64,000 nucleotides of DNA, taken from an uncultured Gammaproteobacteria bacterium (GTDB lineage: Bacteria > Patescibacteriota > Patescibacteriia > Magasanikbacterales > UBA922). Of this stretch, positions 9,824 through 47,244 are shown piece by piece. Every line of letters starts with the position of its first letter. The stretch's first letter is position 1. The stretch spans positions 206,792 through 270,791 of the forward strand of contig CAZQXB010000001.1 of the NCBI GenBank assembly GCA_964597575.1, written 5' to 3'. Both the position numbers and the translations under genes were made by a program. The notes under the pieces are model-generated. The model did no database searches, was not told where the DNA came from, and saw only the letters and a list, made by a program, of their open reading frames with translations.

Positions 9824-9879
9824 TACGTAGCGTTGGTGTGGCATTTTTAGATTGAGCCATATCCGCTCTGTTTTTTGGT

Positions 9880-12800
9880 ATGCGTGTGTCATTTCGGCAA
9901 ATTATTATCGGTGTTGTGTTAGCTGTTTCTTTCTCTGGGGTAGTTCGGGTTGCAGCTCTTCCCACATGTCCGCTAACTGAACTTCAGCCCTATAAAACTC
10001 AGGAAAGTTCTGCAGTGTGGTACATTTCTTCCGACTGTACAAAGAAAATTATCTCTAGTTCTGATCTCTTTTTTTCACATTTTCCATCGTGGCAGAGCGT
10101 TCGTTTCACTTCAGCGAAAACATTGGAAAGGGTGCCGACCGACGAGCGTACCCCGTTGCCGTGGGGTCCAAGACGAGTGTTCGAGAGTGGCTCTCTTATC
10201 AAAACGGTAGACGACCGCCGTATATTTTTAGTGTTAGGCGGGGATGTATACCCCATTGCCTCAGAGGAGGTTTTTCTCGGTATGGGGTATCAGTTTAATT
10301 GGGTAGAGAGTGTTACCCCGGACACACTCACTCAATACCGCGCGCGCCCAACCATAACTTCTGCGTCCAACGTGCCAGCAGCGTTAGTGTTTAAGTATCC
10401 AGACGCGCCGGATGTGTTTCGTTTGACAAGAGACGCGAGTGGGCAGTTGACTACTCGATACTTAAACACCGTGGAAGAAGTGCGGTCAATTTATCGACTT
10501 GACCGGATTGCCACGCTCCACGAGCGTCCTTCATTTCCTGGGGCAGCATCTACCGTGGTGTCGCGTGAAACAGGGGCGATTGCCAAAGCAACAGAGCAGG
10601 AAGTAAATATTGTAGCGAATGATCCCACGTTCGGTGAACTCGTTGACCCATTTCGTGCCCCAAAGGAAAGTGATGTTCTCCTTCCTCTCACCTTGTTTTA
10701 TCCCGAATTATTCCCAGAGCTTCTTGCCTTTTTACCTCTTCCTGTTCTTCCTCCTCCTCTTCCACCCCCTCCTCCACCGCCAACCGCATTACAGTCCCGT
10801 GTGGTGCTTGCCAATGCCTCTTCGGCCGTTGGGACAAATGTCATGCCTTTTACCGATTATTCAAATAATTGGCCATATGCGAATTTTTTTAAAGCCGCAC
10901 GCCCTTGGATTTCTGGTGAACGAAATGGTTGTTGGGATTGTGTAACTGGTCTTGATCTCGACGAACATGGGTGGGTACGTTCGCTCCAAAGCGGGCGCTC
11001 AAATGGCGGTCATGTAGCCCGTACTCCAATCCTCACCGCGGATTTCGGTTTTCTGTATCCTGGAGGACGGTATACTATTTTATACGAGGGGGAAGGTGTG
11101 ATTCAGTATTCAGGGTCAGGTGTTCTTAATACTGGTTTGTCTCGCCCTGGTCGACATGTGGTTGATGTGACTCCTCGAGAACGAGTTAGTCTTTTTTTGA
11201 CTATTACAGAAACCAATCCGGCTAATTATATTCGAAATATTCGCGTTTTTCCTCCAGGAGGTGCGTGTGCCAATGATCGTACACAGCTCTGTTCGACAAA
11301 TAGTGATTGTGGCGGAACGAATCAGTGTCTTCTTTTCTCTGAACATGAGAATGAAGTGCTGTTTTATCCTCCCTTTTTAGCAAACTCTCGTCACTACAGT
11401 GTGATCCGTTTTATGCAGGCCATGCGTGTGAACGGAGGGGATGTGCAGCGAATAGTGAATGTCGGCGACTATACAGAAATGGAAGACGCGGTATGGTCGA
11501 GAGTTCCTCCAGAAATGATTGCCCGTCTTGGTAATACCCTCCACAGTGATGTGTGGATAAATATCCCAGTGAATGCGTCAGATGCGCTCGTACGTTGGTT
11601 TGCGACACGGCTTGAGGCAACACTTGATCCAGATCGCCGTGTGTATGTTGAATATTCAAACGAAGCTTGGAACCTGGCTTTGCCATATGTAGAAGAACAT
11701 ACCGTTTTAGCAATTCGAGGCTGTCAAAATAATGCGGCACTTCAGGCCGGATGCGATACAGATTCCATGCCCGGAAACGGAGTGTACTGTGAAGGGCACC
11801 CAAGAACGCTTTTTAATCAGTCCTGTCAGCTTGCGGAAAGAGTACAGTTTAGTCAGCGCACCGTCGAAATCGGGCGCATATTTCGTGATGTATTCCATGG
11901 AAGTCCTCGGGTTGTTCGTGTGATGGGATCTCAGGGGGGGAACTCGAGCCTCCACAGTCGTCTCCTTGTTTCAAATGATGCATTTCTTGAAGTAGATGCG
12001 CTAGCGACGAATCCGTATTTTGGAGGTTACTTAGGAAATAGCACGACGGTGGCAAGCTGGACTGTCGATCAGGTATTTCGTGAACTTGAAAGTGTGGCGG
12101 TTCCATTCGCCCTGAGTGAGGTTCAGCGAGATGTTGACTTTCTGCGACAAAACTATCCCCATCTTGACCTTCTGGCGTATGAGGGCGGACAACACTTAGT
12201 TGGGGTCGGGGCACTCCAAGGAAATGATTCACTCATTACTTTGTTTCGCGCGGTGAATCGAGATCCCCGTATGGGAACACTTTATACCCAGCTTCTTCAA
12301 GGGTGGCGGGAGCGAGGTGGAAAGACTTTTGTCCATTTTGCTGACGTGTCTCCATCCACTCAATATGGTCACTTCGGTGCGTTAGAATCACAAAATCAAT
12401 TGCAAATAAGCGCTCCAAAGTATCTTGCGTTGCAGGCGTTTAGTAATGATGTTGCATGCTGGTGGACGAACTGTCAAAACCCAACACTTATTGGTACTGT
12501 TACTGCTTTTGCTCCGCGTCCAGTCCCTACTCCTCCGGGGGTAACACCGCCACCTCTTACCCCGCCTCCGGTCCTTCCGCCTTCACCACCTCCCTCTCTG
12601 GTAGTGCCAAATACGGCTGCCCTTCAGAGGATTTCTGGGTTTGGTGATGAATTCACAAATCGTGACACCGTCTCTCATTGGGTAAACCGCACTATTGCGG
12701 AGGGGGTTCCGTCACAACTATCACGATTTGATGTAAATCAAACCACGCCAGGAAATTTGGTCATGATACCAAATTCCGGAGGAGGTATGGGTTGGAATAA

Positions 12801-14961
12801 TGCCCTTCGGGGTGCCTTTGTGCATAAACACATTACCGGGGACTTTGTGGTGTCGGCCAGACTAAATGTTCATAGTCTAGGTGGTGTGGCAACGGCTCCG
12901 ACAAGGGTATTTAACCTTGGTGGACTTTTGGTTCGAAATCCGAACAGTGCTACTTCGCGTGAAAATTGGATTTTCGTAAGTTCGGGAACCCAAGATTATA
13001 TTGGCTCTGTTGGCACGGCCACGCTAAATACTACGGATAATGTGTCGAGTAATTTTCGAGTAGTGGCAGGGCCTCAGGATGTGGCTTTGCGCATTTGTCG
13101 TCTGGGAAGTACTTTTCGTTTGTATCGTTCTACTGATGGAGAGACAACCTGGATTGAATTGGGCTCATTTGTCCGAACTGATCTTCCAAATGGGCTCCAG
13201 GTTGGACTTTTTAATGCTGCGGGAGAGGTTGGTGCTTCAGATGTGCAGGTTGATGTAGAGTATGTTCGTGCAGGTATTCCGAGAAATCAAGGTGATTGCA
13301 CAGGTCAGCTTGAGGCTGAAACATACCCTCAACCTGTTGGATTAGGAACTATCCTTCCGCCTCCGCCACCACCCCCTGCACCTCCAGGAACCCCACTATC
13401 TCCACCAGTTGCGCCACCACCCCCTGCGCCTACTCCAACGCCACCTCCTGCTGGGTTACCTCTTATTGCTGGTTTTGGTGATGAGTTTGGGAACCAAAGC
13501 ACGTTATCTCACTGGGCGGTTCGAAGTGTTGTGGAAGGAACAGTTTCACAAATGAGTCGTTTTGATATTAACCAGAGTGTTCCTGGTTCTCTTAGTATGG
13601 TTCCATTTGCCGGAACAGCGTGGGTGAATAGTGAGCGAGGGCCGTTTGTTTATAAACACATTACTGGAAATTTCGTTGTTTCGGCTCGAATTAACGCACA
13701 TAGTCTGTCAGGAACTACTGTGGCGCCCGGGCGTACGTTTAATATTGGTGGAATCATGGCAAGAAGCACTGCAAGTCCTTCAACTCGGGAAAATTGGATT
13801 GTGGGCGACACTGGAACGCAACAATCACTCGGTAGCGTTGGAATGGCAGCATTTCAAACAATTGATGGGGTCTCGTTTGGGTATGTTACGAACAGTTCAC
13901 CGCACGATCTGTTAATTCGAATGTGTCGTTTTGATGGTCAATTTCGCATCTATCGATCAATTAATAACGGACAAACATGGTCTCAGACGGCGGCATACCC
14001 AAGAAATGAGCTCGGCGATACGCTCCAGGTAGGTATCTTCGGTGCTGCGGCAGAATTTGGTGCTGCCGATCTTCAGATCGATGTCGACTATATTCGTGCC
14101 GGCATTCCTACAAGTGTAAACGATTGTACTGCTGAGCTTCGTGCCGAAACAAACCCACAACCGATCAGCGAAACATCAGGAGGAGGAACTTCACCACCAA
14201 CCCCAAGTCCGACACCAACCCCTTCTCCAAGTTCGACACCAACCCCTTCTCCAAGTCCGACACCAAGTCCATCACCGTCACCTGTGCCAAATTTTAGTGA
14301 CGAGTTTTCAAATTCTGCTACTATTGCTAACTGGTTCAGTCGTCAACAAACAGAGGGAACCCTCGGTCAGCTTTCAACGTGGACGGTAAATAGTACGGTA
14401 CCTGGAAACATGGTACTCATTCCGTCGCAAAATAATGTAGCGTGGTGGAGTACTTCGGTCGGGCCCCTTATCTATAAAGAGGTAACAGGTGACTTCGTTG
14501 TCTCAACCCGACTAAATGTCCATAGTGTTGGGAATCCATCAATACCTCCCACCCAGGCTATTAATGGTGGAGGGCTCATGATCCGAACACCATCTACCTC
14601 TGGGGGTGATCAAAACTGGGTGGCAGTAAACGTGGGAAATGGAAATGCGCTTGCGATGGTAAATACAACCAATTCTTTTACTCCGTACACCCCGCCACCA
14701 TATACTGTTACTAACCTCAGTCTTCGGATGTGCCGTATCGGGTCATCGGTGCGTCTTTATCGCTCTACTGATGGTGAGGCAAGCTGGGAGCAGGTGAATG
14801 AGTTTACGAGGGCTGACTTCCCTCAGACAGTTCAGGTGGGAATGATGATTTTTGCAGCCAACACCTCCGGAAATCCAGATTTGCAGGTAGATTATGACTA
14901 TATTCGGGCAATTGTCCCTCAGTCGGTGTCTGATTGTACCGCGACCATCGGTCCACAATAG
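9880..14961 (+). CDS. Giant secreted protein A (1693 aa) with a signal peptide and an N-terminal module shared with protein B. A Pro-rich linker is followed by a large beta-sandwich plus putative (beta/alpha)8 glycosidase-like module, then three tandem ConA-like (DUF1349/GH43-C-like) beta-jellyroll repeats separated by PPPP/PTPS linkers.
   Basis: Signal peptide MRVSFRQIIIGVVLAVSFSG. Three repeats start with (I)SGFGDEF / FSDEF and end with DxDYIRAG...SDCT. Poly-Pro linkers (LPPPLPPPPPPP, PPPPPPAPPGTP, TPSPTPTPSPSS). Confidence 0.85.
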   Translation: MRVSFRQIIIGVVLAVSFSGVVRVAALPTCPLTELQPYKTQESSAVWYISSDCTKKIISSSDLFFSHFPSWQSVRFTSAKTLERVPTDERTPLPWGPRRVFESGSLIKTVDDRRIFLVLGGDVYPIASEEVFLGMGYQFNWVESVTPDTLTQYRARPTITSASNVPAALVFKYPDAPDVFRLTRDASGQLTTRYLNTVEEVRSIYRLDRIATLHERPSFPGAASTVVSRETGAIAKATEQEVNIVANDPTFGELVDPFRAPKESDVLLPLTLFYPELFPELLAFLPLPVLPPPLPPPPPPPTALQSRVVLANASSAVGTNVMPFTDYSNNWPYANFFKAARPWISGERNGCWDCVTGLDLDEHGWVRSLQSGRSNGGHVARTPILTADFGFLYPGGRYTILYEGEGVIQYSGSGVLNTGLSRPGRHVVDVTPRERVSLFLTITETNPANYIRNIRVFPPGGACANDRTQLCSTNSDCGGTNQCLLFSEHENEVLFYPPFLANSRHYSVIRFMQAMRVNGGDVQRIVNVGDYTEMEDAVWSRVPPEMIARLGNTLHSDVWINIPVNASDALVRWFATRLEATLDPDRRVYVEYSNEAWNLALPYVEEHTVLAIRGCQNNAALQAGCDTDSMPGNGVYCEGHPRTLFNQSCQLAERVQFSQRTVEIGRIFRDVFHGSPRVVRVMGSQGGNSSLHSRLLVSNDAFLEVDALATNPYFGGYLGNSTTVASWTVDQVFRELESVAVPFALSEVQRDVDFLRQNYPHLDLLAYEGGQHLVGVGALQGNDSLITLFRAVNRDPRMGTLYTQLLQGWRERGGKTFVHFADVSPSTQYGHFGALESQNQLQISAPKYLALQAFSNDVACWWTNCQNPTLIGTVTAFAPRPVPTPPGVTPPPLTPPPVLPPSPPPSLVVPNTAALQRISGFGDEFTNRDTVSHWVNRTIAEGVPSQLSRFDVNQTTPGNLVMIPNSGGGMGWNNALRGAFVHKHITGDFVVSARLNVHSLGGVATAPTRVFNLGGLLVRNPNSATSRENWIFVSSGTQDYIGSVGTATLNTTDNVSSNFRVVAGPQDVALRICRLGSTFRLYRSTDGETTWIELGSFVRTDLPNGLQVGLFNAAGEVGASDVQVDVEYVRAGIPRNQGDCTGQLEAETYPQPVGLGTILPPPPPPPAPPGTPLSPPVAPPPPAPTPTPPPAGLPLIAGFGDEFGNQSTLSHWAVRSVVEGTVSQMSRFDINQSVPGSLSMVPFAGTAWVNSERGPFVYKHITGNFVVSARINAHSLSGTTVAPGRTFNIGGIMARSTASPSTRENWIVGDTGTQQSLGSVGMAAFQTIDGVSFGYVTNSSPHDLLIRMCRFDGQFRIYRSINNGQTWSQTAAYPRNELGDTLQVGIFGAAAEFGAADLQIDVDYIRAGIPTSVNDCTAELRAETNPQPISETSGGGTSPPTPSPTPTPSPSSTPTPSPSPTPSPSPSPVPNFSDEFSNSATIANWFSRQQTEGTLGQLSTWTVNSTVPGNMVLIPSQNNVAWWSTSVGPLIYKEVTGDFVVSTRLNVHSVGNPSIPPTQAINGGGLMIRTPSTSGGDQNWVAVNVGNGNALAMVNTTNSFTPYTPPPYTVTNLSLRMCRIGSSVRLYRSTDGEASWEQVNEFTRADFPQTVQVGMMIFAANTSGNPDLQVDYDYIRAIVPQSVSDCTATIGPQ
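14206..14275. repeat. Tandem roughly 30-bp DNA repeats encoding a (TPSPSP)n linker inside protein A.
   Basis: gacaccaaccccttctccaagt(t/c)c is repeated in tandem with near-identity. Confidence 0.6.
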
Positions 14962-14988
14962 GGCTAAAGAGGGGGGAGCAAGACACTC

Positions 14989-15016
14989 TTGACTTTTTCT
15001 CTTAGTATGGTATAGT
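14989..15016 (+). promoter_or_regulatory. Sigma70-like promoter (TTGACT - 16 nt - TATAGT) upstream of the zinc-ribbon ORF and rplY.
   Basis: ctcTTGACTttttctcttagtatggTATAGTtctg lies about 15 nt before the ATG at 15030. Confidence 0.4.
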
Positions 15017-15029
15017 TCTGCCACCCTTT

Positions 15030-30004: not shown

Positions 30005-33000
30005 ATGAGAGGTGAGTTTTTTGAGAAAGTTTTGGTGGGGTGCGCTATTGTCGTTTTCGGCAGCGTCTTTGCGTTCGGGGTAAACTCAACCCTTCGTGCT
30101 CAAACCGCATCATGCCCACTACAAACCTTACTTCCTTATAAAACCCCTCAAAGTTCCGCTGTCTACTACGTCTCAAAAGATTGTAAAAAAAGGCCAATTC
30201 GAAATCCTGCAGTTTACTTTTCTCACTTTTCCTCTTGGAGAGACGTTCGTGTAACGAGTCAAACCGTTTTGAATCGTATTCCCGATCATGAATTATCCTT
30301 TTTGCCCTGGGGACCGAGACGGGTTTATGAAAATGGATCCTTAGTAAAAACTGTCGACGACTCCCGAGTGTTTATTATTCTCGATGGAATTCGTCTGTAT
30401 CCGATTGAATCAGAATTCGCTTTTCGTTCTGTTTTGGGATACTCATTTGATCAGGTGGAGGATGTGACACGTAATGTCATTGACCGGTATATTGTTCAAT
30501 CGACCCCGATTGAATCTCTGGAGACCATCCCTCCTTTTCTGGTATTTAAGTACCCAAATGATGCGAAAGTGTACGCTCTTGAAAGAGATGGTGAGGATTT
30601 GGCGAAGCGGTATGTATCTTCTTTTGCTCAGATTCGTCAGAATAATTTTCGTGCAGATCGTATCGCTACAATCCCAACAACACGGACTTTTGTTGATTCG
30701 GTTGGGTCGGCGCCACCGGCGCGACCATTGCCGCAGCCAGCACCAGTACCTACACCAACACCTGTCCCTCCGCCTTCTCCTCTTGTTCAAATTGTACCTG
30801 TACCGGTCCCAGTACCAGTTCCCGTACCAGTTCCAACACCGGTACCGGGAGTCGTTCCTCCAGTCGTGCCACCGCCTGCAACTCCGCCACCTGTGGTTCC
30901 TCCTCCTGCAACCCCAACCCCAACTCCGGTACCCATCACGCCAAATCCACCACCACCTGCGCCAACTCCAAGCCCTTCGTCGGCCCTGTCAGCAGATCCA
31001 TCCCTTAGTGATGAATTTAATTCTGCCTCAACGCTCGGTAATTGGACGATGATGAACAACGACCTTCTTTCATCTGTAAATATTGGAACTACTGTTGCGG
31101 GGAGACTGACCATGGTTTCTGCGCCTATTGATCAAAATGGGTGGTATTCCGATCGGCAGGGCGCGTACATGTATAAAACTGTCTCTGGAAATTTTGTGGT
31201 GGAAATGTCTGGACGTGTGGGGAGAAACAGCGACATGAATTCGGTGCCTTCTGGAACATTTAAGGAGGCGGGTATCATTGTCCGAAACCCCTCTGGCCCA
31301 GTTCGTCAAAGCGGAAGTTTGACTACCGCTGTTGCTCCGGCAGGGCAGCAGAATTGGGTCATGTATAATATTGGAAAACAAATTTTTCAGTATGGACGTC
31401 AGGCGAAAAGTACCCGATCAGGAAGCCCAGATACGCTTTCCACGCTTTACTACACCGACACTCCTTCTGGAGTGCGAAACGGGAGAATTCGGGTTTGTCG
31501 CGTTGGAACAACGATATATTTCTACCACATGATGGAGAACGAGTCGACGTGGGTAGAGGAGGCGTTTGAGAGCACGACTGGGGTTGATGGTAACGGTCGT
31601 AATTTAGCAACACCTGGAATTAGTGGTAATGCAGTAGGGACTCCGATCCGTTTTGTTCGGAGTGATTTTCCAACGACACTTCAAGTAGGGCTCATTGCTG
31701 GAAACTGGGATAGTCCGTATGACGGGAGGTCCGAGTTTGATTATGTGCGCATTGCACCAGTAAGCACTCAAAGTGATTGTACCCGAGATATGCCCGCTGC
31801 TGGAACGACCACCCCACCCCCTCCACCACCAGCACCAACATCCCTCCCTGCGATTAGTGGCTTTGGTGACGAGTTTGCAGACGCAGCGACCTTATCACAG
31901 TGGTCAAACAGACAAACTGTTGAAGGGGGAGCTTCGCAAATTTCTACTTGGAATATTAATACCACAGCAGCTGGTGCCATGGTGCTTACTCCATCTGCTA
32001 ATGTTGGGTGGTTTAATTCTTTGGTCGGTCCATTTATTTATAAACAAATTTCCGGTGATTTCGTTGTTACAACGCAAGTTTTAGCAAGAAGTGTCGCTTC
32101 TGCCAACCAGGCTCCATCGCAAGTTTCGAATGCGGCTGGGCTTTTGGTTCGAAATCCAGCGAGCGCAAGCGGGATTCAGAACTGGGTGACGAATAATGTG
32201 GGAACACACAATGGGGCGGTAGTCGGAACGACAAATCTGAGTACTGTTAATAGCTTAACGAATTCAGTGACAGCGACGGCCGGTCAATTTTCCGTTGCTC
32301 TCCGTATTTGTCGCATCGGTTCAACTATTAGAACCTACATCTCTCAGGATAATGAGCAAAGCTGGACACTCACAAACACTATTACCCGATCTGATTTTCC
32401 GACCACCCTTCAGGTGGGTATGATGGCTGTGGCTGCAAGTTCGGTTGCAGACATTCGCGCAGAATTTGCCTATATTCGTTCCGCTGTTCCTTCATCTGTA
32501 AGTGACTGTACAGAAACAATTGATCCTGCGATTTCAACTGGCGGTACGACACCAACCCCGCCACCTCCGCCACCTGCTCCACCTACAACCCCGCCACCTC
32601 CGCCACCTGCTTCAGTTTCTGCGATTAGTGGTTTTGGCGATGAGTTTGCAGACGCTGGTACCTTGTCCCAGTGGTCGAACAGACAAACCGTAGAAGGTTC
32701 AGTGTCTCAACTTACCACATGGGACATCAACAACAGTGCCTCGGGTGCGATGGCGCTCACTCCTTCACAAGGGAATATTCCTTGGTATAACTCTTCTGTT
32801 GGTCCATTTATCTACAAACAAATTTCTGGAGATTTCGTGGTATCAACACAGGTATTGGCGCGAAGTTTGAATTCACCAAGTCAGGGGCCAACCCAGCAGT
32901 ACAATGCAGCTGGTTTGTTGGTGCGTACTCCTGCAAGTGCTGCAGGTGTTCAGAACTGGGTGACGAATAATGTGGGTAATGTGAATGGTGTTATTGGAGT

Positions 33001-34105
33001 CGTAAATATTAACACATCAAATTCCGTATCAGGGGCAATTGTAAGTCAAGACTCTTCATTCTCTGCTGCTCTCCGTATTTGTCGCATCGGTTCAACTATT
33101 AGAACCTACATCTCTCAGGATAATGAGCAAAGCTGGACACTCACAAACACTATTACCCGATCTGATTTTCCGACCACCCTTCAGGTGGGTATGATGGCTG
33201 TGGCTGCAAGCAGCGGAAATGATTTGCGCGCTGAATTTTCCTATATTCGAGCCGGCTCCCCGACATCTGTAACAGACTGTACCGGAACTTTAGGTACTGC
33301 TGTGGCTTCCTCTCCATCGCCTGCGCCTACACCTCCTCCACCGGCACCCCCACCTCCACCACCAGCCAACCCACCACCTCCACCCCCACCACCTCCATCA
33401 GGTCCAGCCGCAATTTCTGGGTTTAGTGATGAGTTTAATAGCAATAGTACGATTGGGAATTGGACAAGCCGTCAAGTAGCTGAGGGTAGTGCAAATCAGA
33501 TTGCAACCTGGAACATCAATTCAACGGTTTCGGGCAACATGGTACTCATACCGGCAACAAATAACATCGCTTGGTATAATGCGCTCGTGGGGCCATTTAT
33601 CTATAAAAATGTTACAGGAAACTTTGTCGTGTCTCTTCGGCTCAATGCGCATAGTTTGAGTAACTCCGCAGCAAGTCCCGGTCAGATATACAATGCCGGG
33701 GGGCTTTTAGTGAGAAATCCATCTTCGGCCGGAAGTGCTACACAAAATTGGATAGAAATGGCTATTGGAAATCACGAGACAGCAAACGGTTTGGTAACAG
33801 TAAACACGACAAATTCAGCTACGCCGAATCTTAGTCCCATCGCCGGAGCAACGAACACAAGTGTTCGCATATGTCGTATTGGTTCAACATTTACTTTGTA
33901 CACCTCAACAGATAACGATCAGACGTGGAATTTGAGCGCAACGTATAACCGGTTCGATCTTCCGACAACGCTTCAGGTGGGTATGGTTGTTGTGGCGGCA
34001 AATGCTTCTGGAAGTCCAGATGTGCAGGTTGATTTTGATTATATCCGAGGGGTTGTGCCAACCTCATCTTCCGACTGTACGGCAGTCATTGGAGTCCAAT
34101 CATAA
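30005..34105 (+). CDS. Giant secreted protein B (1366 aa), paralogue of A. It has a signal peptide, the shared N-terminal module (about 230 aa) and a (PV)n/Pro-rich linker, then four tandem ConA-like (DUF1349/GH43-C-like) beta-jellyroll repeats each ending in ...SDCT.
   Basis: The N-terminal region aligns by eye with protein A (CPLxxLxPYKTxxSSAVxYxSxDC ... LPWGPRRVxExGSLxKTVDDxRxF ... LVFKYP ... ADRIAT). The repeats begin (L/I)SxFxDEF and end (E/D)FxYIRxxxPxSxSDCT. Confidence 0.85.
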   Translation: MRGEFFEKVLVGCAIVVFGSVFAFGVNSTLRAQTASCPLQTLLPYKTPQSSAVYYVSKDCKKRPIRNPAVYFSHFSSWRDVRVTSQTVLNRIPDHELSFLPWGPRRVYENGSLVKTVDDSRVFIILDGIRLYPIESEFAFRSVLGYSFDQVEDVTRNVIDRYIVQSTPIESLETIPPFLVFKYPNDAKVYALERDGEDLAKRYVSSFAQIRQNNFRADRIATIPTTRTFVDSVGSAPPARPLPQPAPVPTPTPVPPPSPLVQIVPVPVPVPVPVPVPTPVPGVVPPVVPPPATPPPVVPPPATPTPTPVPITPNPPPPAPTPSPSSALSADPSLSDEFNSASTLGNWTMMNNDLLSSVNIGTTVAGRLTMVSAPIDQNGWYSDRQGAYMYKTVSGNFVVEMSGRVGRNSDMNSVPSGTFKEAGIIVRNPSGPVRQSGSLTTAVAPAGQQNWVMYNIGKQIFQYGRQAKSTRSGSPDTLSTLYYTDTPSGVRNGRIRVCRVGTTIYFYHMMENESTWVEEAFESTTGVDGNGRNLATPGISGNAVGTPIRFVRSDFPTTLQVGLIAGNWDSPYDGRSEFDYVRIAPVSTQSDCTRDMPAAGTTTPPPPPPAPTSLPAISGFGDEFADAATLSQWSNRQTVEGGASQISTWNINTTAAGAMVLTPSANVGWFNSLVGPFIYKQISGDFVVTTQVLARSVASANQAPSQVSNAAGLLVRNPASASGIQNWVTNNVGTHNGAVVGTTNLSTVNSLTNSVTATAGQFSVALRICRIGSTIRTYISQDNEQSWTLTNTITRSDFPTTLQVGMMAVAASSVADIRAEFAYIRSAVPSSVSDCTETIDPAISTGGTTPTPPPPPPAPPTTPPPPPPASVSAISGFGDEFADAGTLSQWSNRQTVEGSVSQLTTWDINNSASGAMALTPSQGNIPWYNSSVGPFIYKQISGDFVVSTQVLARSLNSPSQGPTQQYNAAGLLVRTPASAAGVQNWVTNNVGNVNGVIGVVNINTSNSVSGAIVSQDSSFSAALRICRIGSTIRTYISQDNEQSWTLTNTITRSDFPTTLQVGMMAVAASSGNDLRAEFSYIRAGSPTSVTDCTGTLGTAVASSPSPAPTPPPPAPPPPPPANPPPPPPPPPSGPAAISGFSDEFNSNSTIGNWTSRQVAEGSANQIATWNINSTVSGNMVLIPATNNIAWYNALVGPFIYKNVTGNFVVSLRLNAHSLSNSAASPGQIYNAGGLLVRNPSSAGSATQNWIEMAIGNHETANGLVTVNTTNSATPNLSPIAGATNTSVRICRIGSTFTLYTSTDNDQTWNLSATYNRFDLPTTLQVGMVVVAANASGSPDVQVDFDYIRGVVPTSSSDCTAVIGVQS
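32299..32440. repeat. First copy of a perfect 142-bp direct repeat inside protein B (repeat units 2 and 3 of the jellyroll array).
   Basis: ctccgtatttgtcgcatcggttcaactattagaacctacatctctcagg...atgatggctgtggctgcaag is identical to 33071-33212. Confidence 0.8.
33071..33212. repeat. Second copy of the perfect 142-bp direct repeat inside protein B.
   Basis: Identical to 32299-32440. The flanks are about 85% identical. Confidence 0.8.
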
Positions 34106-34158: not shown

Positions 34159-34189
34159 TGTTATGATATGTTCAATAATATTCATATCT

Positions 34190-35434
34190 ATGGAAAAAAT
34201 AAAACGCATTGCAGCTCGTGAAATTCTTGATTCTCGTGGAAATCCAACCCTCGAAACAACTCTTTTTTTGGAAAACGGAGGTCGGGTTGCAGCCTCAGTG
34301 CCAAGTGGAGCGTCGACCGGTTCCTATGAAGCGCACGAGTTGCGTGATGGGGGTAAACGATATGGGGGAAAAGGGGTGCAAAAGGCAGTAGATCATGTGA
34401 ATCGGGTGATCGGACCAAAAATTATTGGTTTTTCTGTAACCGACCAGGCAGGTATTGATCAGGAACTACTCCACCTTGACGGGACGAAGGAAAAGAAGAG
34501 GCTCGGTGCCAATGCGCTTTTGTCGGTATCTCTTGCTGCGGCTCGGGGCGGAGCTCTTGCTGAAGGGCTACCACTGTATCGGTATTTACGCGATAAATCT
34601 GGTTTAAGGGAGCGAGGGTGGCGCATGCCACAGCCCATGATGAATGTGATTAATGGTGGCCGACACGCGACGAATGGTCTTTCGGTTCAAGAATTTATGA
34701 TTCTGCCAAAACATCGGAATGTGGTGGAGCAGGTGAGAATTGGTTCAGAAGTATTCCATGCGTTGTCGCGTCTGCTTGAGAAAAAACGATATGCTACTGG
34801 GGTTGGTGATGAAGGAGGGTTTGCGCCGGCATTTCCCGAAAATGAATCTGCGTTAAAGTTTCTCATGACTGCAGTGAAGGAGGCCGGCTATACTCCTGGT
34901 GTGCATGTGGTTTTTGCTCTTGATGTGGCGGCGTCTGAGTTCCATAGCCGACGCGGATATTTGTTTGAAGGGAAGCGTCCTATCTCTTCCGAAAAAATGC
35001 TTCAGGCCTTTTCTGTTTGGATGAAGAAATATCCTTTGGTTTCCATTGAAGATCCGTTTGCTGAGGATGATTGGTCTCCGTGGGTCGAAATGACGAAAAA
35101 ATATGGTTCGCGCCTTGCGATTGTTGGGGATGACCTGTTTGTTACGAATATCGATCGTTTAGGGGAGGGAATAAAACAAGGTGCTGCAAATACTATTTTA
35201 ATCAAACCAAATCAAATTGGAACATTAAGCGAAACATTTGCGACGATTCGACAGGCAAAATCGGCAGGGTATCGTGTCATTGTATCTCATCGTTCTGGGG
35301 AGACTGCTGATACGTTTATTGCGGATTTGGCGGTAGCGGTGCATGCGGACGGCTTAAAAGCCGGTTCACTGTCTCGGAGTGAGCGGGTAGAAAAGTATAA
35401 CCGACTGATGCAAATCTCCCTCGAAGTAGGTTAA
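34190..35434 (+). CDS. eno: Enolase (phosphopyruvate hydratase).
   Basis: MEKIKRIAAREILDSRGNPTLE... is a canonical enolase N-terminus, and the protein is full-length. The start was set at MEKIK. Confidence 0.95.
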   Translation: MEKIKRIAAREILDSRGNPTLETTLFLENGGRVAASVPSGASTGSYEAHELRDGGKRYGGKGVQKAVDHVNRVIGPKIIGFSVTDQAGIDQELLHLDGTKEKKRLGANALLSVSLAAARGGALAEGLPLYRYLRDKSGLRERGWRMPQPMMNVINGGRHATNGLSVQEFMILPKHRNVVEQVRIGSEVFHALSRLLEKKRYATGVGDEGGFAPAFPENESALKFLMTAVKEAGYTPGVHVVFALDVAASEFHSRRGYLFEGKRPISSEKMLQAFSVWMKKYPLVSIEDPFAEDDWSPWVEMTKKYGSRLAIVGDDLFVTNIDRLGEGIKQGAANTILIKPNQIGTLSETFATIRQAKSAGYRVIVSHRSGETADTFIADLAVAVHADGLKAGSLSRSERVEKYNRLMQISLEVG

Positions 35435-35518
35435 GAGGGTTTATGCACATACCTGTTAGGGGTATGTGTGCTATACTATATAAGCATTAGCTTCTTGATT
35501 TTTTTAGTAGATTTTTCT

Positions 35519-38500
35519 ATGGTTTTATTTCGGAAACCTTTTTTGCATATTTCATGGAGTCGTGTTGCGGCTCTGATATTTTTTCTTTCTATAGCGGGGG
35601 TTCTTTTTTTTGCACGCACTCTCCCTGCACTTGTTGCTGTAAATACATGGCCATTTGATACTGCTGGGGATTATACATACAATACTTCCCTTGTCGATGT
35701 AACCGGTGGAGTTGCTACACTTGTAGCAATAACCGGGGGTACCACGACCACAAATCATAATGATAACGGAAGCACAGAATTTGGTGGGGGGACTTCAACA
35801 AGCATCCAGTGGGTGAGTGCCTCAAGTTCACTCCGGATATCGTCGGGAGTAAGTGGTACTTTTACTTCGGTTGTTATTGATGCCGGAGTAACAACCACCT
35901 GGCAAACATTGGCGTGGACACCTTTTGCCCCTTACGGAAAAGAACTTGTTACAAGTACTGCGGAAACTCAGTATAGTTTTGGTAACTTTACAAATACCGG
36001 CGCGATAGCAGCATACTGGCGTTTGAATGAATCGAGTTGGAATGGTACGACAAACGAAGTTCAAAACGCTGTTTCAACGACCTTGCATGGCTCGCGTCGT
36101 GGGGGTGCGACGACAAGCGGTACGGCCCAATTTGGGCGTTCCGGGTCCTTTCCTTTAGCAAATACGTCGTATGTTCATGTAACAACTACAAACTTTTTGG
36201 CAGATTCTCAGTCGGGTACGATTATGGCGTGGATTTTTCCAACAAGTACCGGTGGGGGAACATTCCGTCATTTTTTTGCCTCAACTGATGAGTCGACATC
36301 CGATGGTAACGGCAATCGCGTTGTTTTGGGAATGCTTGATTCTGCAAATCAGTTATTATTCTACCATGCAGATGGTTCTGGTTTTGATTCAAATATCGGA
36401 AATACGGTGATGGCAGCAAATGAGTGGCATCATGTTGCTATTACTAATAGCGGGGCAGCAAACGGCTATCGTATGTATGTTGATGGGGTTCTGCAAACAC
36501 TAACTACTTTCGGTGGGGGAAATTCCGGTGATTGGTTTGCTGATGCAAATGGTTCTGGGGCCACAAATAGAGATAACATCACAATTGGTGGTATACGTCA
36601 TATTACACCTGACCTTTTGTTTGATGGTCTTGTTGATGAGTTGGTGATATTTTCACAAGAATTATCCACCTCAACGATTCGTGACCTTTACCGCCGTGGA
36701 GCACAGCGCTTGAGTTTTCAGGTTCGTTCCTGTGATGATAGTGCATGCAGCGGGGAAACGTTTACAGGCCCAGATGGCACGGCTGCGAGTTACTATACAG
36801 AATCTACCACCACAACGGTTGGCCTACCGTCGAAGAGTTTAATCACTCTCCCAGCTAATCGATATTTTCAGTATCAGACACTATTTAACACAACTTCAAC
36901 CGAACTTTCTCCTGGACTTCTTAGTGTTACAACTACAGGTTTTGCCACAACAACCTACTCCACAACAAGTCCAACGATTATAAATAATACGGGTTTCAGT
37001 TTTAGAAATATTTCTGCGTTTACACATTCACTCGGCGCTGGGAATGCTGGTACGGTGGAGTATCAGGTAGCTGTTGGGAACACCTCTACATTCTATTACT
37101 GGAATGGGAGCAATTGGGTTACAGCAAGCGCCGGATATCCAACGCACACCAATACGGTTTCAGAAGTAAATTCAAACATTATTCAGCTTGATACTGATGT
37201 CGGTGTTGGCACCTTCTACTTTCGCGCCTTTCTCGCTTCGAACGGAGCGCAGCAGGTTCAGCTTTCAGAGGTTGCGATCATGACAACGTCAACCATTTCT
37301 TTCGCGGCAAGCAGTGGTTCAGCAAGTGAAGGAAGTGGTACGAGTACGATTGTTGTTCAGCTTGATGAAGTTTCTTCGAGTACGATGACGGTTAATTATG
37401 CGGTTACCGGAGGAACAGCAACTGCGACAAGTGATTATGTTCTTGCAAGTGGTACTTCTACTATTGCGGCTGGAAGCACAACAACAAGTATTAGTATTCA
37501 GCTTGTCGATGACTCTGTTATCGACGGGAGTGAGACTGTCATCCTCACACTTACAAATGCGATCGGAGGGCTTCTTGGGTCAACCACAACATTTACCTTA
37601 ACCATTACCGATAATGATACTGCAGGGGTGACACTCAATCCTTCTTCTGTTTCTGTAACAGAAGGTGGTTCGGATACTTCGTATACTATTGTTTTGAATA
37701 CTCAGCCATCGAGTACTGTAAGTATTACACTTGCCACCTCAACAGGCGATATTTCTTTGTCGACTACCTCAATTACATTTACTACAAGTACTTGGAATTC
37801 TGCGCAGACGATTACGGTTACTCCTGTAAATGATAGTGATGTTGAGGGTACACACTCTGATACTATCACCCATACCGCAAGTTCAACCGATTCGAATTAT
37901 CATGCCATTTCGATTTCTAATATGTCGGTGAGTGTTACTGATGATGATGCATCATCTTCTTCTGGAGGCGGAGGCGGAGGCGGAGGTGGTGGTTCATTTA
38001 TTCCTACGACACCAGCACCTCAGGGCTTTGGCGGAACTGGTAATGGGGAAATTCGAGCAGGGGAGGGAGCGGCGACAAACCTCCCTGTTTCCGAAGGTTC
38101 CTTCATTGATGCTACTAATCGAGCGGTAACAATATCGTTTGCTGTGGAAGGTGCGACTCGCATGGCGCTTTCAAACCAACCTGATTTTGCGCTGGCTACT
38201 CAAGAGCCGTATCGTCCGAGCGTCATTTGGGACGTGTGTGGGAATTCGACCGTATGTCCTGAGGGTATTTATACTCTGTATGCACGATTTTATAACAGCT
38301 ACGGAGTTTCTGGAAATGTTATTTCCCGCCAAATTCGATATCGACCAACTTCAAGCTCGGTTACCCTATCACCTAGCTTAGTTCGACTTTTGAAGTCTGC
38401 TGATGACCCTAAAGTGTTCGAGGTTATTAATGGTGAAAAGCGCTGGCTTGTAAACGAACAGGCGTTTCTTTCGCGAGGGTATTCATGGGGGGCGATTGAG

Positions 38501-38836
38501 GTGGTTCCCTCAAGTGTTCTTCGGGCGTTGCCAGATGCGGGCCAAATTTCAACTCCTGCATTATTACCACCTACAAATAGGTCAATTTCACCCGCGTTCC
38601 GTTTCTCTTCATATCTTTCGTTTGGCTCGCAGGGAGCGGCCGTTCGAAGCTTGCAGGTTCTTCTTGTGGATTTAGGGTACTTCCCTAGAACCGTTCAGCC
38701 AAATGGTGTATTTGGTCCAACTACCCGTGGGGCCGTACAGGCGTTTCAGCGTGCTAACGGTCTTACTCCAATTGGTGTTGTTGGTCCGCAGACTCGCGCG
38801 CTCCTCAACGGAATTTTAAGTGCAAGAGGGGAATAG
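35519..38836 (+). CDS. Giant cell-envelope protein C with an N-terminal TM anchor and a LamG-like (ConA-like) jellyroll domain. Calx-beta domains, a poly-Gly linker, a domain of unknown fold and a C-terminal peptidoglycan-binding (PG_binding_1-like) domain follow.
   Basis: LamG_3 signature ...WHHVAITNSGAANGYRMYVDGVLQ...DELVIFSQELS. Calx-beta signatures (TISFAASSGSASEGSGTSTIVVQLDEVSSSTMTVNYAVTGGTATATSDYVLASGT...; ITDNDTAGV...). G(n) run. C-terminal ...GAAVRSLQVLLVDLGYFP...GVFGPTTRGAVQAFQRANGLTPIGVVGPQTRALL. Confidence 0.8.
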   Translation: MVLFRKPFLHISWSRVAALIFFLSIAGVLFFARTLPALVAVNTWPFDTAGDYTYNTSLVDVTGGVATLVAITGGTTTTNHNDNGSTEFGGGTSTSIQWVSASSSLRISSGVSGTFTSVVIDAGVTTTWQTLAWTPFAPYGKELVTSTAETQYSFGNFTNTGAIAAYWRLNESSWNGTTNEVQNAVSTTLHGSRRGGATTSGTAQFGRSGSFPLANTSYVHVTTTNFLADSQSGTIMAWIFPTSTGGGTFRHFFASTDESTSDGNGNRVVLGMLDSANQLLFYHADGSGFDSNIGNTVMAANEWHHVAITNSGAANGYRMYVDGVLQTLTTFGGGNSGDWFADANGSGATNRDNITIGGIRHITPDLLFDGLVDELVIFSQELSTSTIRDLYRRGAQRLSFQVRSCDDSACSGETFTGPDGTAASYYTESTTTTVGLPSKSLITLPANRYFQYQTLFNTTSTELSPGLLSVTTTGFATTTYSTTSPTIINNTGFSFRNISAFTHSLGAGNAGTVEYQVAVGNTSTFYYWNGSNWVTASAGYPTHTNTVSEVNSNIIQLDTDVGVGTFYFRAFLASNGAQQVQLSEVAIMTTSTISFAASSGSASEGSGTSTIVVQLDEVSSSTMTVNYAVTGGTATATSDYVLASGTSTIAAGSTTTSISIQLVDDSVIDGSETVILTLTNAIGGLLGSTTTFTLTITDNDTAGVTLNPSSVSVTEGGSDTSYTIVLNTQPSSTVSITLATSTGDISLSTTSITFTTSTWNSAQTITVTPVNDSDVEGTHSDTITHTASSTDSNYHAISISNMSVSVTDDDASSSSGGGGGGGGGGSFIPTTPAPQGFGGTGNGEIRAGEGAATNLPVSEGSFIDATNRAVTISFAVEGATRMALSNQPDFALATQEPYRPSVIWDVCGNSTVCPEGIYTLYARFYNSYGVSGNVISRQIRYRPTSSSVTLSPSLVRLLKSADDPKVFEVINGEKRWLVNEQAFLSRGYSWGAIEVVPSSVLRALPDAGQISTPALLPPTNRSISPAFRFSSYLSFGSQGAAVRSLQVLLVDLGYFPRTVQPNGVFGPTTRGAVQAFQRANGLTPIGVVGPQTRALLNGILSARGE

Positions 38837-38888: not shown

Positions 38889-38938
38889 GCCGGATGATAT
38901 GCTTGTACGTTATACTGTGGCATAGTCCCTATAAAATT

Positions 38939-40507
38939 ATGAATACCCTTTTTCCTCGAAAAACTGCCCTCCTTATTTTGGATGGTTTTGGTCTTGCCCC
39001 ATTTGATCGCCCAGGAAATGCTATTCGCCCGGATACTGCTCCTCATATTTTTGAGTATAAGAAAAAGTACACGGCCACGGAATTAAATACCACTGGGGCA
39101 ACAGTGGGTCTCTTTCCAAATCAAAAGGGAAATTCCGAGGCCGGACATTTAACTATCGGGACTGGTCGAATTGTAAAACAAGATTTGGTACGAATTTCTG
39201 AAGCGATTAGTAATGGTACTTTTTTTAAGAATGAAGCCTTTAAACAGGCTACTCATCACGCCAAAAAATATCATACGGCGGCACACATTTTCGCCCTCCT
39301 TACTGATGGAAACAGTGCTCATGCATACCCAGAACATATTTTTGCCACACTTGAGTATCTTCGCCGCGAAGAAATTCGTGAAGTGTACCTGCATCTTTTT
39401 ACCGATGGTCGAGACAGCTCTCCGCATAATGCTCTGGTGTTTCTTCAGGCGCTTCGGGGTCATATGGTTGGGGGGGAGAAAATCGCGACAATGATGGGTC
39501 GCTACTATGGTATGGATCGAAATAAGACATGGTCGCGTACGAAAGAAGCTTATGAAGCTATTGTTTTTGGTAAAGGGGGTCATGTTGCCAAAAGTGCCGA
39601 GGAGGCGATAACTCTTGCCTACAGTCGAGGTGAGACCGACGAGTATATTACCCCAACCGTTATTGTTGATGACGAATCAAAACCTATCGGAACCGTAGAT
39701 GATAACGATGTTATTTTTTTTACAAATGCACGCAGCGATCGGGCAAGACAATTGACTAAAGCCTTTGTGCAAGAGGATTTTCAGAAACTAAATCCAGGAG
39801 CTTTTCGACGCTCTCGGGTACCAAAAAATATCCGTTTTGTTGCCATGACTGATTTCGGACCGGATTTGCCAGGAGTGTTCACTGCTTTTCCAAGTCCAGA
39901 TGTACCAAATGCTTTGGCTAAAGCAATTGGAGAGAGCTATCGCCAATTATTTATTTCTGAAACAGAAAAGTATGCTCATGTAACATACTTTATTAATGGT
40001 GGGTACGCTGAACCAATAAACGGGGAAAAACGAGAATTGGTTGCCTCGTCTCCAATTTTATCGTATGCAGATTTACCGGAAATGAATGCGGCAGTGCTTG
40101 CTGATCGAATTGCAAGTGCATTTAAAGAAGATGAATATGATTTTGTGTGTACTAATTTTCCTAATGCTGATATGGTGGGGCATACGGGAAATCTTTCAGC
40201 AGCCGAAACTGCGGTTCGGGCCTTGGATAACGCCGTGGCTTTGGTGGTTGAAACGACTCTCTCGCTCGGTGGTCAAGTAATGATTGTTGCCGACCATGGA
40301 AATGCTGAAGAGATGATTAATCTGGCCACTGGGGATATTATGACTGAACACACCAGAAACCTGGTTCCTTGTATTATTATCGGGAAAGGGTTTGAGAAGA
40401 TGCCGATAAAACCCGCAGGAACATTGGCTGATGTTGCTCCAACCTTGCTTCACATGATGGGACTTCCTCAACCCGAGGAAATGACAGGAAAATCATTATT
40501 ATTGTAA
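38939..40507 (+). CDS. gpmI: 2,3-bisphosphoglycerate-independent phosphoglycerate mutase (iPGM), copy 1.
   Basis: ALLILDGFG ... NSEAGHLTIGTGRIV ... iPGM phosphatase and transferase domain motifs. The start was set at MNTLFPRK. Confidence 0.9.
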   Translation: MNTLFPRKTALLILDGFGLAPFDRPGNAIRPDTAPHIFEYKKKYTATELNTTGATVGLFPNQKGNSEAGHLTIGTGRIVKQDLVRISEAISNGTFFKNEAFKQATHHAKKYHTAAHIFALLTDGNSAHAYPEHIFATLEYLRREEIREVYLHLFTDGRDSSPHNALVFLQALRGHMVGGEKIATMMGRYYGMDRNKTWSRTKEAYEAIVFGKGGHVAKSAEEAITLAYSRGETDEYITPTVIVDDESKPIGTVDDNDVIFFTNARSDRARQLTKAFVQEDFQKLNPGAFRRSRVPKNIRFVAMTDFGPDLPGVFTAFPSPDVPNALAKAIGESYRQLFISETEKYAHVTYFINGGYAEPINGEKRELVASSPILSYADLPEMNAAVLADRIASAFKEDEYDFVCTNFPNADMVGHTGNLSAAETAVRALDNAVALVVETTLSLGGQVMIVADHGNAEEMINLATGDIMTEHTRNLVPCIIIGKGFEKMPIKPAGTLADVAPTLLHMMGLPQPEEMTGKSLLL

Positions 40508-40511: not shown

Positions 40512-42083
40512 ATGGCTCGACCAAAACCAGTGGTGCTCGCAATTCTGGATGGCTGGGGAGTTGCGCCTGACGCTGAAGGTAACGCCATTACTCGTGCGCG
40601 ATTACCACATATTAGTCAGTTTATCCGCGAATACCCAGTCATGACCCTCTTTGCTTCTGGTACAGAGGTCGGTCTTTCTTTTGGAGAGATGGGAAATTCT
40701 GAGGTGGGACATTTAAATATCGGTGCTGGTCGTGTGTACTACCAAACATTTCCGCGCATTCAAAAAAGTATCTTAGACGATTCTTTTTTTACCAATAAGG
40801 CTTTTCTTGAAACGATCGAGCAAGTGAAGGCAAAAAAAACAGCACTTCATATCATGGGACTTGTTTCTCCTGGAAATGTGCATGCAAGCGATAAACATTG
40901 TTTAGCTCTTTTGAAATTGGCCAAACAGCACCGAATCAAAAATGTCTTCGTTCATGTATTTCTTGATGGGCGCGATACGGTATATAACGGGGGCAAAGAA
41001 TTTGTGGCCGCTCTTGAAACAGAAATGCGTCGCATGGGGGTCGGAAAAATTGCCAGCATCTCTGGACGATTTTATGCGATGGATCGCGATAATCGATGGG
41101 AGCGTATCGAGCAGGCCTACCGAGCTATTGCTGAAGGGAAGGGGCCTCTTATGCCAAGTGCGGCTTTGGCCATTGAATCTTCTTATGAGCGCGGAGTATA
41201 CGACGAAGAATTTGTTCCTGTTGTTATTGGCAAAGACGGTCCTACTGGCAAGGTTTCTTCTGGGGATGGCATTATTTTTTTCAATTTTCGCCCTGATCGT
41301 GCGCGAGAACTCACCAAAGCTTTCGTATTGCCGAGTTTTGCAAAATTTGAACGAACGTATATTGAAAATTTGGCTTTTGTAACCATGACCGAGTATGAAA
41401 AAGAAATTCCGGTCTCGGTGGCATATCCGCCACAAATCATTCATGGGTGTTTAGCCGAAGTGATCAGTGCTGCTGGTTTGAAACAGCTTCATGTCGCTGA
41501 AACAGAAAAGTATGCTCACGTTACTTTCTTTTTAAATGGAACGGTTGAAGAACCATTTCCTGGAGAAACGCGTCAAATTGTTCCGTCGCCCAGAGTAGCC
41601 TCGTACGACCAGGCACCAGAAATGGCCGCGGCTGACATTACGAAAATGGTCGTTGCGGCAATTGAGGGAGGAGAGTACGATGTTATTATTTGTAATTTCG
41701 CGAATGCAGACATGGTTGGGCATACGGGAAATTTTGAAGCCTCAGTAAAAGCGTGTGAGGCGATTGATCGATCGCTCGGTCTCATTGCCGATCATGTGCT
41801 TGCCAAAGACGGTGTGTTATTGATTACAGCAGACCACGGAAATGCGGAAGAAACGGTGAATTTGCACACAGGGACGATGGATAAAGAACACAGTAATAAC
41901 CCTGTTCCATTCATGATTATTGGGCACCGTTTTCGAGGCGAGGTAGGGCCGGCAGGTGATCCAATTAATGGTGACATCAGTTTACTTTCACCCGTTGGTA
42001 TTTTGTCTGATGTCGCGCCAACCATGTTGTCTATTTTGGGAATCAACCAACCTCCGGAAATGACGGGTCGGCCACTTATTTAG
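40512..42083 (+). CDS. gpmI: 2,3-bisphosphoglycerate-independent phosphoglycerate mutase (iPGM), copy 2, a diverged tandem paralogue.
   Basis: VVLAILDGWGVAP ... NSEVGHLNIGAGRVYYQ ... SETEKYAHVTFF ... ADMVGHTGN. It lies 5 nt after copy 1. Confidence 0.9.
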   Translation: MARPKPVVLAILDGWGVAPDAEGNAITRARLPHISQFIREYPVMTLFASGTEVGLSFGEMGNSEVGHLNIGAGRVYYQTFPRIQKSILDDSFFTNKAFLETIEQVKAKKTALHIMGLVSPGNVHASDKHCLALLKLAKQHRIKNVFVHVFLDGRDTVYNGGKEFVAALETEMRRMGVGKIASISGRFYAMDRDNRWERIEQAYRAIAEGKGPLMPSAALAIESSYERGVYDEEFVPVVIGKDGPTGKVSSGDGIIFFNFRPDRARELTKAFVLPSFAKFERTYIENLAFVTMTEYEKEIPVSVAYPPQIIHGCLAEVISAAGLKQLHVAETEKYAHVTFFLNGTVEEPFPGETRQIVPSPRVASYDQAPEMAAADITKMVVAAIEGGEYDVIICNFANADMVGHTGNFEASVKACEAIDRSLGLIADHVLAKDGVLLITADHGNAEETVNLHTGTMDKEHSNNPVPFMIIGHRFRGEVGPAGDPINGDISLLSPVGILSDVAPTMLSILGINQPPEMTGRPLI

Positions 42084-43867: not shown

Positions 43868-44082
43868 TAACGCACCCTCCTAAAGACGCGTTTCGCGTCT
43901 TTACCCGCACCTGCCCGAATTGGCCGGTGAAGGTAGAAAACGCCAAACCCTAACTCGAGAGTATAGAAGATTATTCTTTTTTTGTCAATAGAGCCAAATA
44001 TACCGCTTTGTGTATTAAAAAAGTGCTGAATAAAGCAAAAAACTTGCCTTTTATCGCTCTTTTTTATACAATAATAAATACT

Positions 44083-47000: not shown

Positions 47001-47244
47001 GGTACAGGGGGTGGGTAAAGTTACACTAACAGTAAAAGGACAGGTGGATACCGCAAAGGAAAAGATTCGTATTCAAAAAGAAATAGACTCAGTTGCGCCG
47101 TACCTCCAGGCCCTTAAAGGAAAACTTTCAAATGAAAGCTTTGTGTCGAAGGCACCGCCGCAAGTGATTGAGATTGAAAAGAAAAAACTTGCTGACGCGG
47201 AAGAAAAATTAATAAAACTTACGGAGCAACTCGCTTCACTATAA
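44083..47244 (+). CDS. valS: Valyl-tRNA synthetase carrying an in-frame insertion of about 190 aa: a histidine-phosphatase (phosphoglycerate-mutase superfamily) domain.
   Basis: HMGH (HIGH), KMSKS, tRNA-binding and the C-terminal coiled-coil are all present. Between the conserved ...WFSSGLWTFSTLGWPE and FHPTSVLETGYDIIFFWVARM blocks (normally about 7 aa apart) lies HFVRHGEAENN...SSPVPRAKETAEII...VVIVSHGDPI. The start was set at MKELSKAFEAKQYE. Confidence 0.9.
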   Translation: MKELSKAFEAKQYEDSIYKRWEESGFFNPDVCVEKGVTDARAEAFTVILPPPNVTGTLHMGHASMLAIEDLMVRYHRMKGEKTLWLPGTDHAAIATQSKVEKMIKEKEGKSRYDLGRDPFLARVHQFAKESHDTIVNQCKKMGSSLDWSREAFTLDEPRNRAVRTMFKKMYDDGLIYRGSRIVNWDPKGQTTISDDELVYVEEKTTFYYFKYGPFVIGTARPETKFGDKYVVMHPDDERYAAYKHGDTISVEWINGPITATIIKDTAIDMAFGTGVMTITPWHSVVDFEIAERHGLEKEQIIDEAGKLLPIAGEFSGLPISKARAGIVEKLRTKGLLVREEDYAHQVATAERTGALVEPQIKLQWFVNVNKEFERDGKKTTLKSLMQEAVKSKNIEILPDRFEKIYFSWINNLRDWCISRQIWYGHQIPVWYRGSEIYCGITPPAGEGWVQDSDSLDTWFSSGLWTFSTLGWPETTIHFVRHGEAENNAANIVDDGTGPRSFPLTKKGREQVKKTAKALAKQSIGVIISSPVPRAKETAEIIASEVGVEIMYDEALREIGMGDLLYTSQDEFHAKRGDFDRWHHDSPHGVESYDALKARTAACLEKILETYRGKTVVIVSHGDPIATMKKLGTKLPDGVYDLPDTGSATTCTFNNANTQSTDFSVFHPTSVLETGYDIIFFWVARMILMATYALDQIPFRTVYLHGLVRDAEGKKMSKSLGNIIDPLDMIEKYGTDATRLSLLVGNTPGNDLKLSEEKIAGFRNFTNKIWNISRFMLLNIETPQAAVTCPEPETATDAWILSELSATIEAYSGHLDQFEYSQAGELLRAFTYDTLADWYLELAKLEGRKDVLLNYILNTLLTLWHPFMPFVTETIWQEMYGKDAFLMVQRWPEIKKVKKSKKENPVMSVQKVVLALRQLKSDYRISKAEEASIVADKGVKKELESFLPHIAKLAGVVTMTFASEIPDGAVHTLVQGVGKVTLTVKGQVDTAKEKIRIQKEIDSVAPYLQALKGKLSNESFVSKAPPQVIEIEKKKLADAEEKLIKLTEQLASL
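45504..46077 (+). other. Histidine-phosphatase-superfamily domain inserted into ValS (RHG...R...SHG catalytic signature).
   Basis: RHGE(A)ENN, LTKKGREQ, ISSPVPRAKETA and VSHG motifs in the order expected for PF00300-type phosphatases. Confidence 0.75.

Follow-up and report, generated by a model that had tools for sequence, protein, structure and literature searches.

The structure of EccB1 revealed repeats that resemble PlyCB, a wall-binding domain of a phage lysin, and pointed to possible peptidoglycan binding (PMC4769845). EccB proteins (PF05108; PDB 3x3m) possess a transmembrane helix, the EccB central domain and four repeats arranged around a core, and they belong to the context of the type VII secretion system (T7SS). 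The multivalency of PlyCB is provided by a homo-oligomer of eight monomers in a ring. Another described arrangement is that of the SLH triplets, three repeats of about 55 aa that occupy one or the other terminus of secreted enzymes or surface proteins, with many such proteins per genome; the SLH fold is helical. In the present study, two large proteins, designated A and B, were compared with these systems. They are encoded in a 64-kb stretch of contig CAZQXB010000001.1 (the window, whose numbering is used below), and both begin with a signal peptide and a module of about 200 aa, hereafter the N-module. Although uncatalogued, the N-module is widespread, and its fold class is recognisable. It seems that chances are about even that A and B are Sec-exported modular surface proteins, in which the N-module would be a wall anchor, followed by proline-rich spacers, a clan GH-A-type glycosidase (in A) and DUF1349 domains acting as glycan binders. 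Anchor, linker, enzyme and lectin array make up a conventional design, which is built in part from two undescribed families.

Layout of proteins A and B and properties of the N-module

Both open reading frames (ORFs) are intact and were read on the forward strand. Proteins A and B have in common the signal peptide, the N-module, proline-rich linkers (33-58% proline) and three (A) or four (B) ConA-like domains of the DUF1349 type. The features are given below, with the borders of the repeats in both proteins set by local hidden Markov models (HMMs).

9880..14961, forward strand: ORF A, 1693 aa
9880..9957, forward strand: signal peptide of A, aa 1-26, read from the sequence (basic n-region, hydrophobic core, VAA/LP)
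9958..10551, forward strand: N-module of A, aa 27-224, three EccB/PlyCB-like units of ~55 aa, invariant Cys30-Cys53 pair
10552..10812, forward strand: linker 1 of A, with a polyproline run at its end
10813..11364, forward strand: β-sandwich sub-domain and Cys-rich loop of the glycosidase-like module of A, aa ~312-495, from the secondary structure of the AlphaFold2 (AF2) model
11365..12489, forward strand: (β/α)8 barrel of A, clan GH-A type, aa ~496-870, candidate catalytic Glu E595 and E768
12622..13308, forward strand: repeat 1 of A, DUF1349-like ConA-type, aa 915-1143, Cys1073/Cys1140
13456..14136, forward strand: repeat 2 of A, DUF1349-like, aa 1193-1419, Cys1349/Cys1416
14275..14946, forward strand: repeat 3 of A, DUF1349-like, aa 1466-1689, Cys1618/Cys1686
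30005..34105, forward strand: ORF B, 1366 aa
30005..30103, forward strand: signal peptide of B, aa 1-33, read from the sequence
30104..30706, forward strand: N-module of B, aa 34-234, Cys37/Cys60
30986..31789, forward strand: repeat 1 of B, aa 328-595, divergent with two insertions, Cys498/Cys592
31844..32518, forward strand: repeat 2 of B, aa 614-838, Cys769/Cys835
32615..33289, forward strand: repeat 3 of B, aa 871-1095, Cys1026/Cys1092
33404..34087, forward strand: repeat 4 of B, aa 1134-1361, Cys1290/Cys1358

Both N-termini look like Sec-type signal peptides. As was found by the BLASTP comparison of A against B, residues A8-219 and B16-229 share 45% identity (E 6e-50) and the repeat regions share 30-43% identity, with E-values down to 3e-177, so the similarity of the two sequences is far above chance level. 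An earlier, sequence-only reading of this DNA had described two paralogues with a homologous N-module, polyproline linkers and arrays of three and four tandem repeats, and this description was borne out. The genes of A and B lie 15 kb apart in the window, and their homologues are adjacent on metagenome contig L007, where a B-like gene (9743-13810, N-module and four DUF1349 domains) immediately precedes an A-like gene (13789-18870, N-module, glycoside hydrolase module, esterase-like domain and Big_7 array). This arrangement suggests a tandem origin of A and B with a subsequent swap of passenger domains.

The N-module consists of three diverged units of ~55 aa, which are mutually homologous (hhalign 92%, 98% and 78%). 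The invariant positions comprise the Cys pair in unit 1, P.G of the LPWGP loop and one Lys. The AF2 model (predicted local distance difference test, pLDDT, 95; predicted template modelling score, pTM, 0.87) resembles the EccB1 repeats and the wall-binding domains of the phage lysins PlyCB, LysIME-EF1 and Lys170, and the modelled unit is structurally similar to the PlyCB-like wall-binding fold. At the sequence level, the N-module matched nothing in Pfam (E ≤ 10), NCBIfam and PHROGs, nor, by sequence or profile search, in the PDB; SLH, LysM, SH3b, PG_binding_1 and CWB2 were likewise not found in it among Pfam families at E ≤ 10. The earlier description of the N-module as belonging to no known family thus holds for its sequence only, since the units are predicted to fold like EccB1 and PlyCB.

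The differences from these systems are considerable. The N-module has no detectable sequence similarity to PlyCB, LysIME-EF1 and Lys170 (PDB 4f87, 6ist and 7d55), and it combines three diverged units in one chain, in contrast to the ring of PlyCB; moreover, unit 1 has a dedicated predicted disulfide, and A and B, unlike the proteins that carry those phage domains, are not lysins. Compared with EccB, proteins A and B are devoid of the transmembrane helix, the EccB central domain and the T7SS context (no T7SS genes are present in the 64-kb window), and the N-module has three units as against four repeats. A and B have no Pfam match to SLH, and the N-module unit is predicted to be mixed β/α.

Neither A nor B reaches PF05108, but a relative built of many units does. 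Protein P0187 (1423 aa) contains about ten tandem copies of the ~55-aa unit and matches both the N-module HMM (1.6e-43) and the Pfam EccB model (39.3 bits, cutoff 27), thus providing a sequence bridge between the N-module and EccB. The same protein matches phrog_9616, an uncharacterised phage family, at E 2.8e-86, which means that a phage protein family is built from the ~55-aa unit.

The exhaustive HMM search of 1.84 billion representatives yielded 954 proteins with the N-module at E ≤ 1e-3 and 249 at E ≤ 1e-30, the count of ~950 referring to clusters at 50% identity. A word-indexed homologue search with the N-module of A gave no match, a sensitivity artefact in view of these 954. Among the best 150 matches (149 full-length), the N-module was N-terminal in 95, where it starts at about residue 25-40 behind a signal peptide, and C-terminal in 54; it was never internal and never duplicated. 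The proteins concerned range from about 230 to 4666 aa. Their partner domains, in 61 proteins scanned, include fn3 (12), Big_7 (7) and PG_binding_1 (5), as well as Big_13, esterases, LamG_3, GH44, DUF1996, Kazal and dockerin. The A-type glycosidase-like module is borne by ten of the best 150 proteins and DUF1349-like repeats by four. On metagenome contigs, N-module genes form tandem clusters (L015 has three genes, L010 at least two and L008 two), and one 833-kb contig has at least six. The module had been considered undescribed. It is not peculiar to A and B, being a terminal module of varied secreted proteins in 954 clusters; the absence of Pfam, NCBIfam and PDB sequence matches remains, although the module is widespread and its predicted fold is of a known kind. 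The suggestion to look in relatives for its fusion to other domains proved fruitful (fn3, Big_7, PG_binding_1, esterases, GH44, LamG and dockerin).

The DUF1349-like repeats and the glycosidase-like module

The repeats were identified as DUF1349 (PF07081), a member of the ConA-like clan, with 65.5 bits (E 6e-18) for A and 102.3 bits (E 3e-29) for B at a gathering cutoff of 32.4; the Pfam match covers three stretches in each protein. P0121, the orthologue of B, scores 114 bits and bears the JGI label 'regulation of enolase protein 1 (concanavalin A-like superfamily)'. A profile search of the PDB with the repeats gave no match. The nearest described counterpart is DUF1349/COG3506, the yeast Ree1-type ConA-like domain, to which A and B are linked by the Pfam score and B also by the JGI name of its orthologue; by contrast, the domains of A and B are secreted, form tandem arrays and belong to a sub-family with a predicted disulfide-bonded C-terminal tail. 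The ConA-like jellyroll group proposed by the sequence-only reading was retained after the profile check, and its fold guesses, for the repeats as well as for the glycosidase-like module, were correct.

The seven repeats have a common beginning, xDEF...W, and a common end, (D/E)(F/Y/V)xY(I/V)R...DCT, much as had been described. Exactly two Cys are present in each; the second is that of the DCT end, and the first, which lies in RxCRxG, was overlooked in the earlier reading, as was the invariant Cys pair of the N-module. An alignment of 81 domains was analysed, comprising the seven repeats of the window, the repeats of relatives and 67 homologues from databases; this last group consists mainly of stand-alone proteins of 250-350 aa from Pseudomonadota, Myxococcota and other phyla. 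Both Cys occur in 60 of the 81 domains, neither occurs in 21, and no domain has only one; the 21 domains that have neither Cys are also devoid of the C-terminal tail. This perfect co-occurrence indicates that the added C-terminal tail is almost certainly stapled to the RxCRxG core strand by an intradomain disulfide. On the same alignment, repeats with the tail and the Cys pair define a sub-family of DUF1349 and are not special to A and B. An inter-domain disulfide, lipid or thioester site, which had been proposed for the terminal Cys, was rejected on account of its perfect co-occurrence with the internal one. By analogy with the superfamily, the arrays are most likely multivalent glycan-binding modules of a CBM (carbohydrate-binding module) or lectin type.

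A patch of 153 nt is 98% identical between repeats 2 and 3 of B (32287-32439 and 33058-33210), as against only 72-74% identity in the repeat DNA on either side, which is suggestive of recent gene conversion between the repeats.

Neither Pfam (E ≤ 10) nor NCBIfam offered a match to the middle module of A (aa ~312-870), and a profile of 65 sequences retrieved no sequence match from the PDB. The word-indexed search revealed 1557 homologues, mostly stand-alone proteins of ~550 aa that carry no annotation; in a few cases the source gives the name 'cellulose-binding protein'. The AF2 model (pLDDT 94.4) comprises an N-terminal β-sandwich and a (β/α)8 barrel, and all Foldseek matches belong to clan GH-A. 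Six residues are invariant in the 65 aligned sequences, namely E591, the N594 and E595 of the NE motif (YSNEAWN, A592-598) and Y767, E768 and G770 of the YEGG motif (AYEGGQH, A766-772); C463 and C477 are nearly invariant. According to the DSSP assignment of the model, N594-E595 is located just after barrel strand β4 and E768 within β7. E595 (nt 11662-11664) is thus a candidate acid/base and E768 (nt 12181-12183) a candidate nucleophile. The NE(A)W and YEGG motifs, whose spacing had seemed reminiscent of clan GH-A in the earlier reading, do exist in A.

The nearest families of the clan are GH51, GH39 and GH79, which share with the model the (β/α)8 barrel and, apparently, the N-E pair after β4 and the Glu in β7. 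The modelled barrel has the fold of the clan. No significant sequence match to these families was obtained, with no Pfam family at E ≤ 10 and no PDB sequence match; identity is 9-14%, and A differs in its N-terminal β-sandwich and Cys-rich loop. Among other homologues of the module, P0006 carries SLH and P0085 dockerin, and A-like relatives possess esterase and Big_7 domains in place of DUF1349. Because of these partners, a substrate of the hemicellulose type or an acetylated polysaccharide is weakly suggested.

Neighbouring genes

Gene B belongs to a run of glycolysis genes composed of GAPDH, PGK, SIMPL, B, enolase, a third surface protein and two genes of cofactor-independent phosphoglycerate mutase, the last being tandem paralogues (38894..40507 and 40512..42083, forward strand). 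The third surface protein (ORF 35468..38836, forward strand, 1122 aa) comprises LamG_3, Calx-beta, one EccB/PlyCB-like unit and a C-terminal PG_binding_1. The unit is positioned as follows.

38378..38551, forward strand: single ~55-aa unit of the N-module type in the third surface protein, directly upstream of PG_binding_1 (nt ~38630-38806)

The enolase gene (34163..35434, forward strand) begins 57 nt behind the end of B; in L006, enolase (4443-5690) likewise follows the B orthologue P0121. DUF1349 corresponds to COG3506, 'regulation of enolase protein 1', but a functional tie of B to the adjacent enolase was judged unlikely, as B is secreted. Since, in addition, the genomes of the window and L006 are close relatives, the adjacency is probably a coincidence or inherited synteny.

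Another large ORF (59032..63357, reverse strand, 1441 aa) encodes fn3, SdrD_B-like and CarboxypepD_reg-like domains and has no N-module. The valyl-tRNA synthetase (44008..47244, forward strand, 1078 aa) contains an unusual insertion, a His_Phos_1 domain (aa 502-656, E 3e-37), which sits between the matches of the tRNA-synthetase catalytic domain and upstream of the anticodon-binding domain. RNase P RNA of bacterial class A (55995-56430, reverse strand, 146 bits) and two tRNA-Leu genes (22058-22142 and 55486-55570, both forward strand, anticodons CAG and GAG) were also detected. The window genes include RNase J, DUF3048, YibE/F and HisKA_7TM, and no outer-membrane genes occur in the 64 kb; together with the contigs of relatives, which measure 0.83-0.91 Mb, this may point to a monoderm-type, possibly small-genome bacterium as the source.

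Possible role of the N-module

If the N-module is a wall anchor, A and B would be exported by Sec, and the triple unit, pinned by its disulfide, would bind a wall polymer non-covalently next to the membrane. Avidity would be achieved by fusing three units, where the wall-binding domains of phages use oligomers instead. The N-module would then play the role of SLH triplets, CWB2 or LysM repeats and would be reused at either terminus across the secreted proteins of the lineage, with proline-rich spacers projecting the passenger domains off the wall. In A, a retaining hydrolysis with two Glu (E595 as acid/base, E768 as nucleophile) may act on a β-linked or furanosidic glycan, and the module would represent an unclassified family of the clan GH-A type. 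The DUF1349 arrays of both proteins would bind glycans multivalently, each domain being stapled by its disulfide. Anchoring is supported by the single unit that stands directly before PG_binding_1 in the third surface protein of the window and by the tandem clusters of N-module genes, with at least six on one contig. The presence of SLH (P0006) or dockerin (P0085) instead of the N-module in homologues of the glycosidase-like module fits an interchangeable anchor slot. Several observations weigh against this interpretation. No Pfam model, not even EccB, is reached by the N-modules of A and B at E ≤ 10; phage GenBank (tblastn) and IMG/VR scans revealed no relative and hence no phage lysin with the sequence of the N-module, and the literature provided no published ligand or function for DUF1349.

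The same structural resemblance might be read in the opposite direction. The nearest solved folds of known role are phage-lysin domains, which recognise walls from outside, so the N-module may be an adhesive head for the wall of another bacterium, the host or prey of an episymbiont, with the glycoside hydrolase and lectin domains acting on the envelope of the partner. The window is dense in large surface proteins, and the contig sizes of relatives hint at small genomes, as would suit such a lifestyle. This is nevertheless unlikely, because the N-module either follows the signal peptide immediately or closes the chain at its C-terminal end, and its many passengers, Ig/fn3 stalks and esterases among them, are unrelated, which is the pattern of an anchor rather than of a specificity head; besides, the N-module co-occurs with PG_binding_1, and a peptidoglycan hydrolase was the partner in none of the 61 proteins scanned. 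CBMs also occupy the termini of enzymes, and the list of partners (GH44, esterases, dockerin, the A-type glycoside hydrolase), along with the 'cellulose-binding protein' labels, would fit a CBM directed at an insoluble polysaccharide of the environment, with A and B freely secreted rather than attached to the wall; this appears less likely still. The most doubtful proposal is a structural or oligomerisation element that binds no glycan, either in an S-layer lattice or as an envelope-spanning scaffold of the kind proposed for EccB. It is at variance with the lack of T7SS genes in the window and with the occurrence of the N-module on very diverse passengers, always as one copy per protein.

Going back to the wall anchor, a broader proposal may be put forward, though only tentatively and with the balance somewhat against it. 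The N-module, as a fused EccB/PlyCB-like triple, would constitute a new cell-wall-targeting family. In a lineage with small genomes that is probably monoderm, it would serve as the general anchor for surface display in place of SLH or LPXTG, and the EccB repeats would for the first time be seen in a functional context. Independently of this, a new glycoside hydrolase family of clan GH-A with more than 1500 members would be founded by the middle module of A. Two abundant families, the triple-repeat module with ~950 clusters (50% identity) and the GH-A-like module of ~550 aa with more than 1500 proteins, have neither a Pfam or NCBIfam entry nor a solved relative. If the N-module is indeed a wall anchor, it would account for the display of a whole set of surface proteins in this lineage and would provide a testable function for repeats of the EccB type, and if the GH-A-like module is an enzyme, one more family of glycoside hydrolases would be added.
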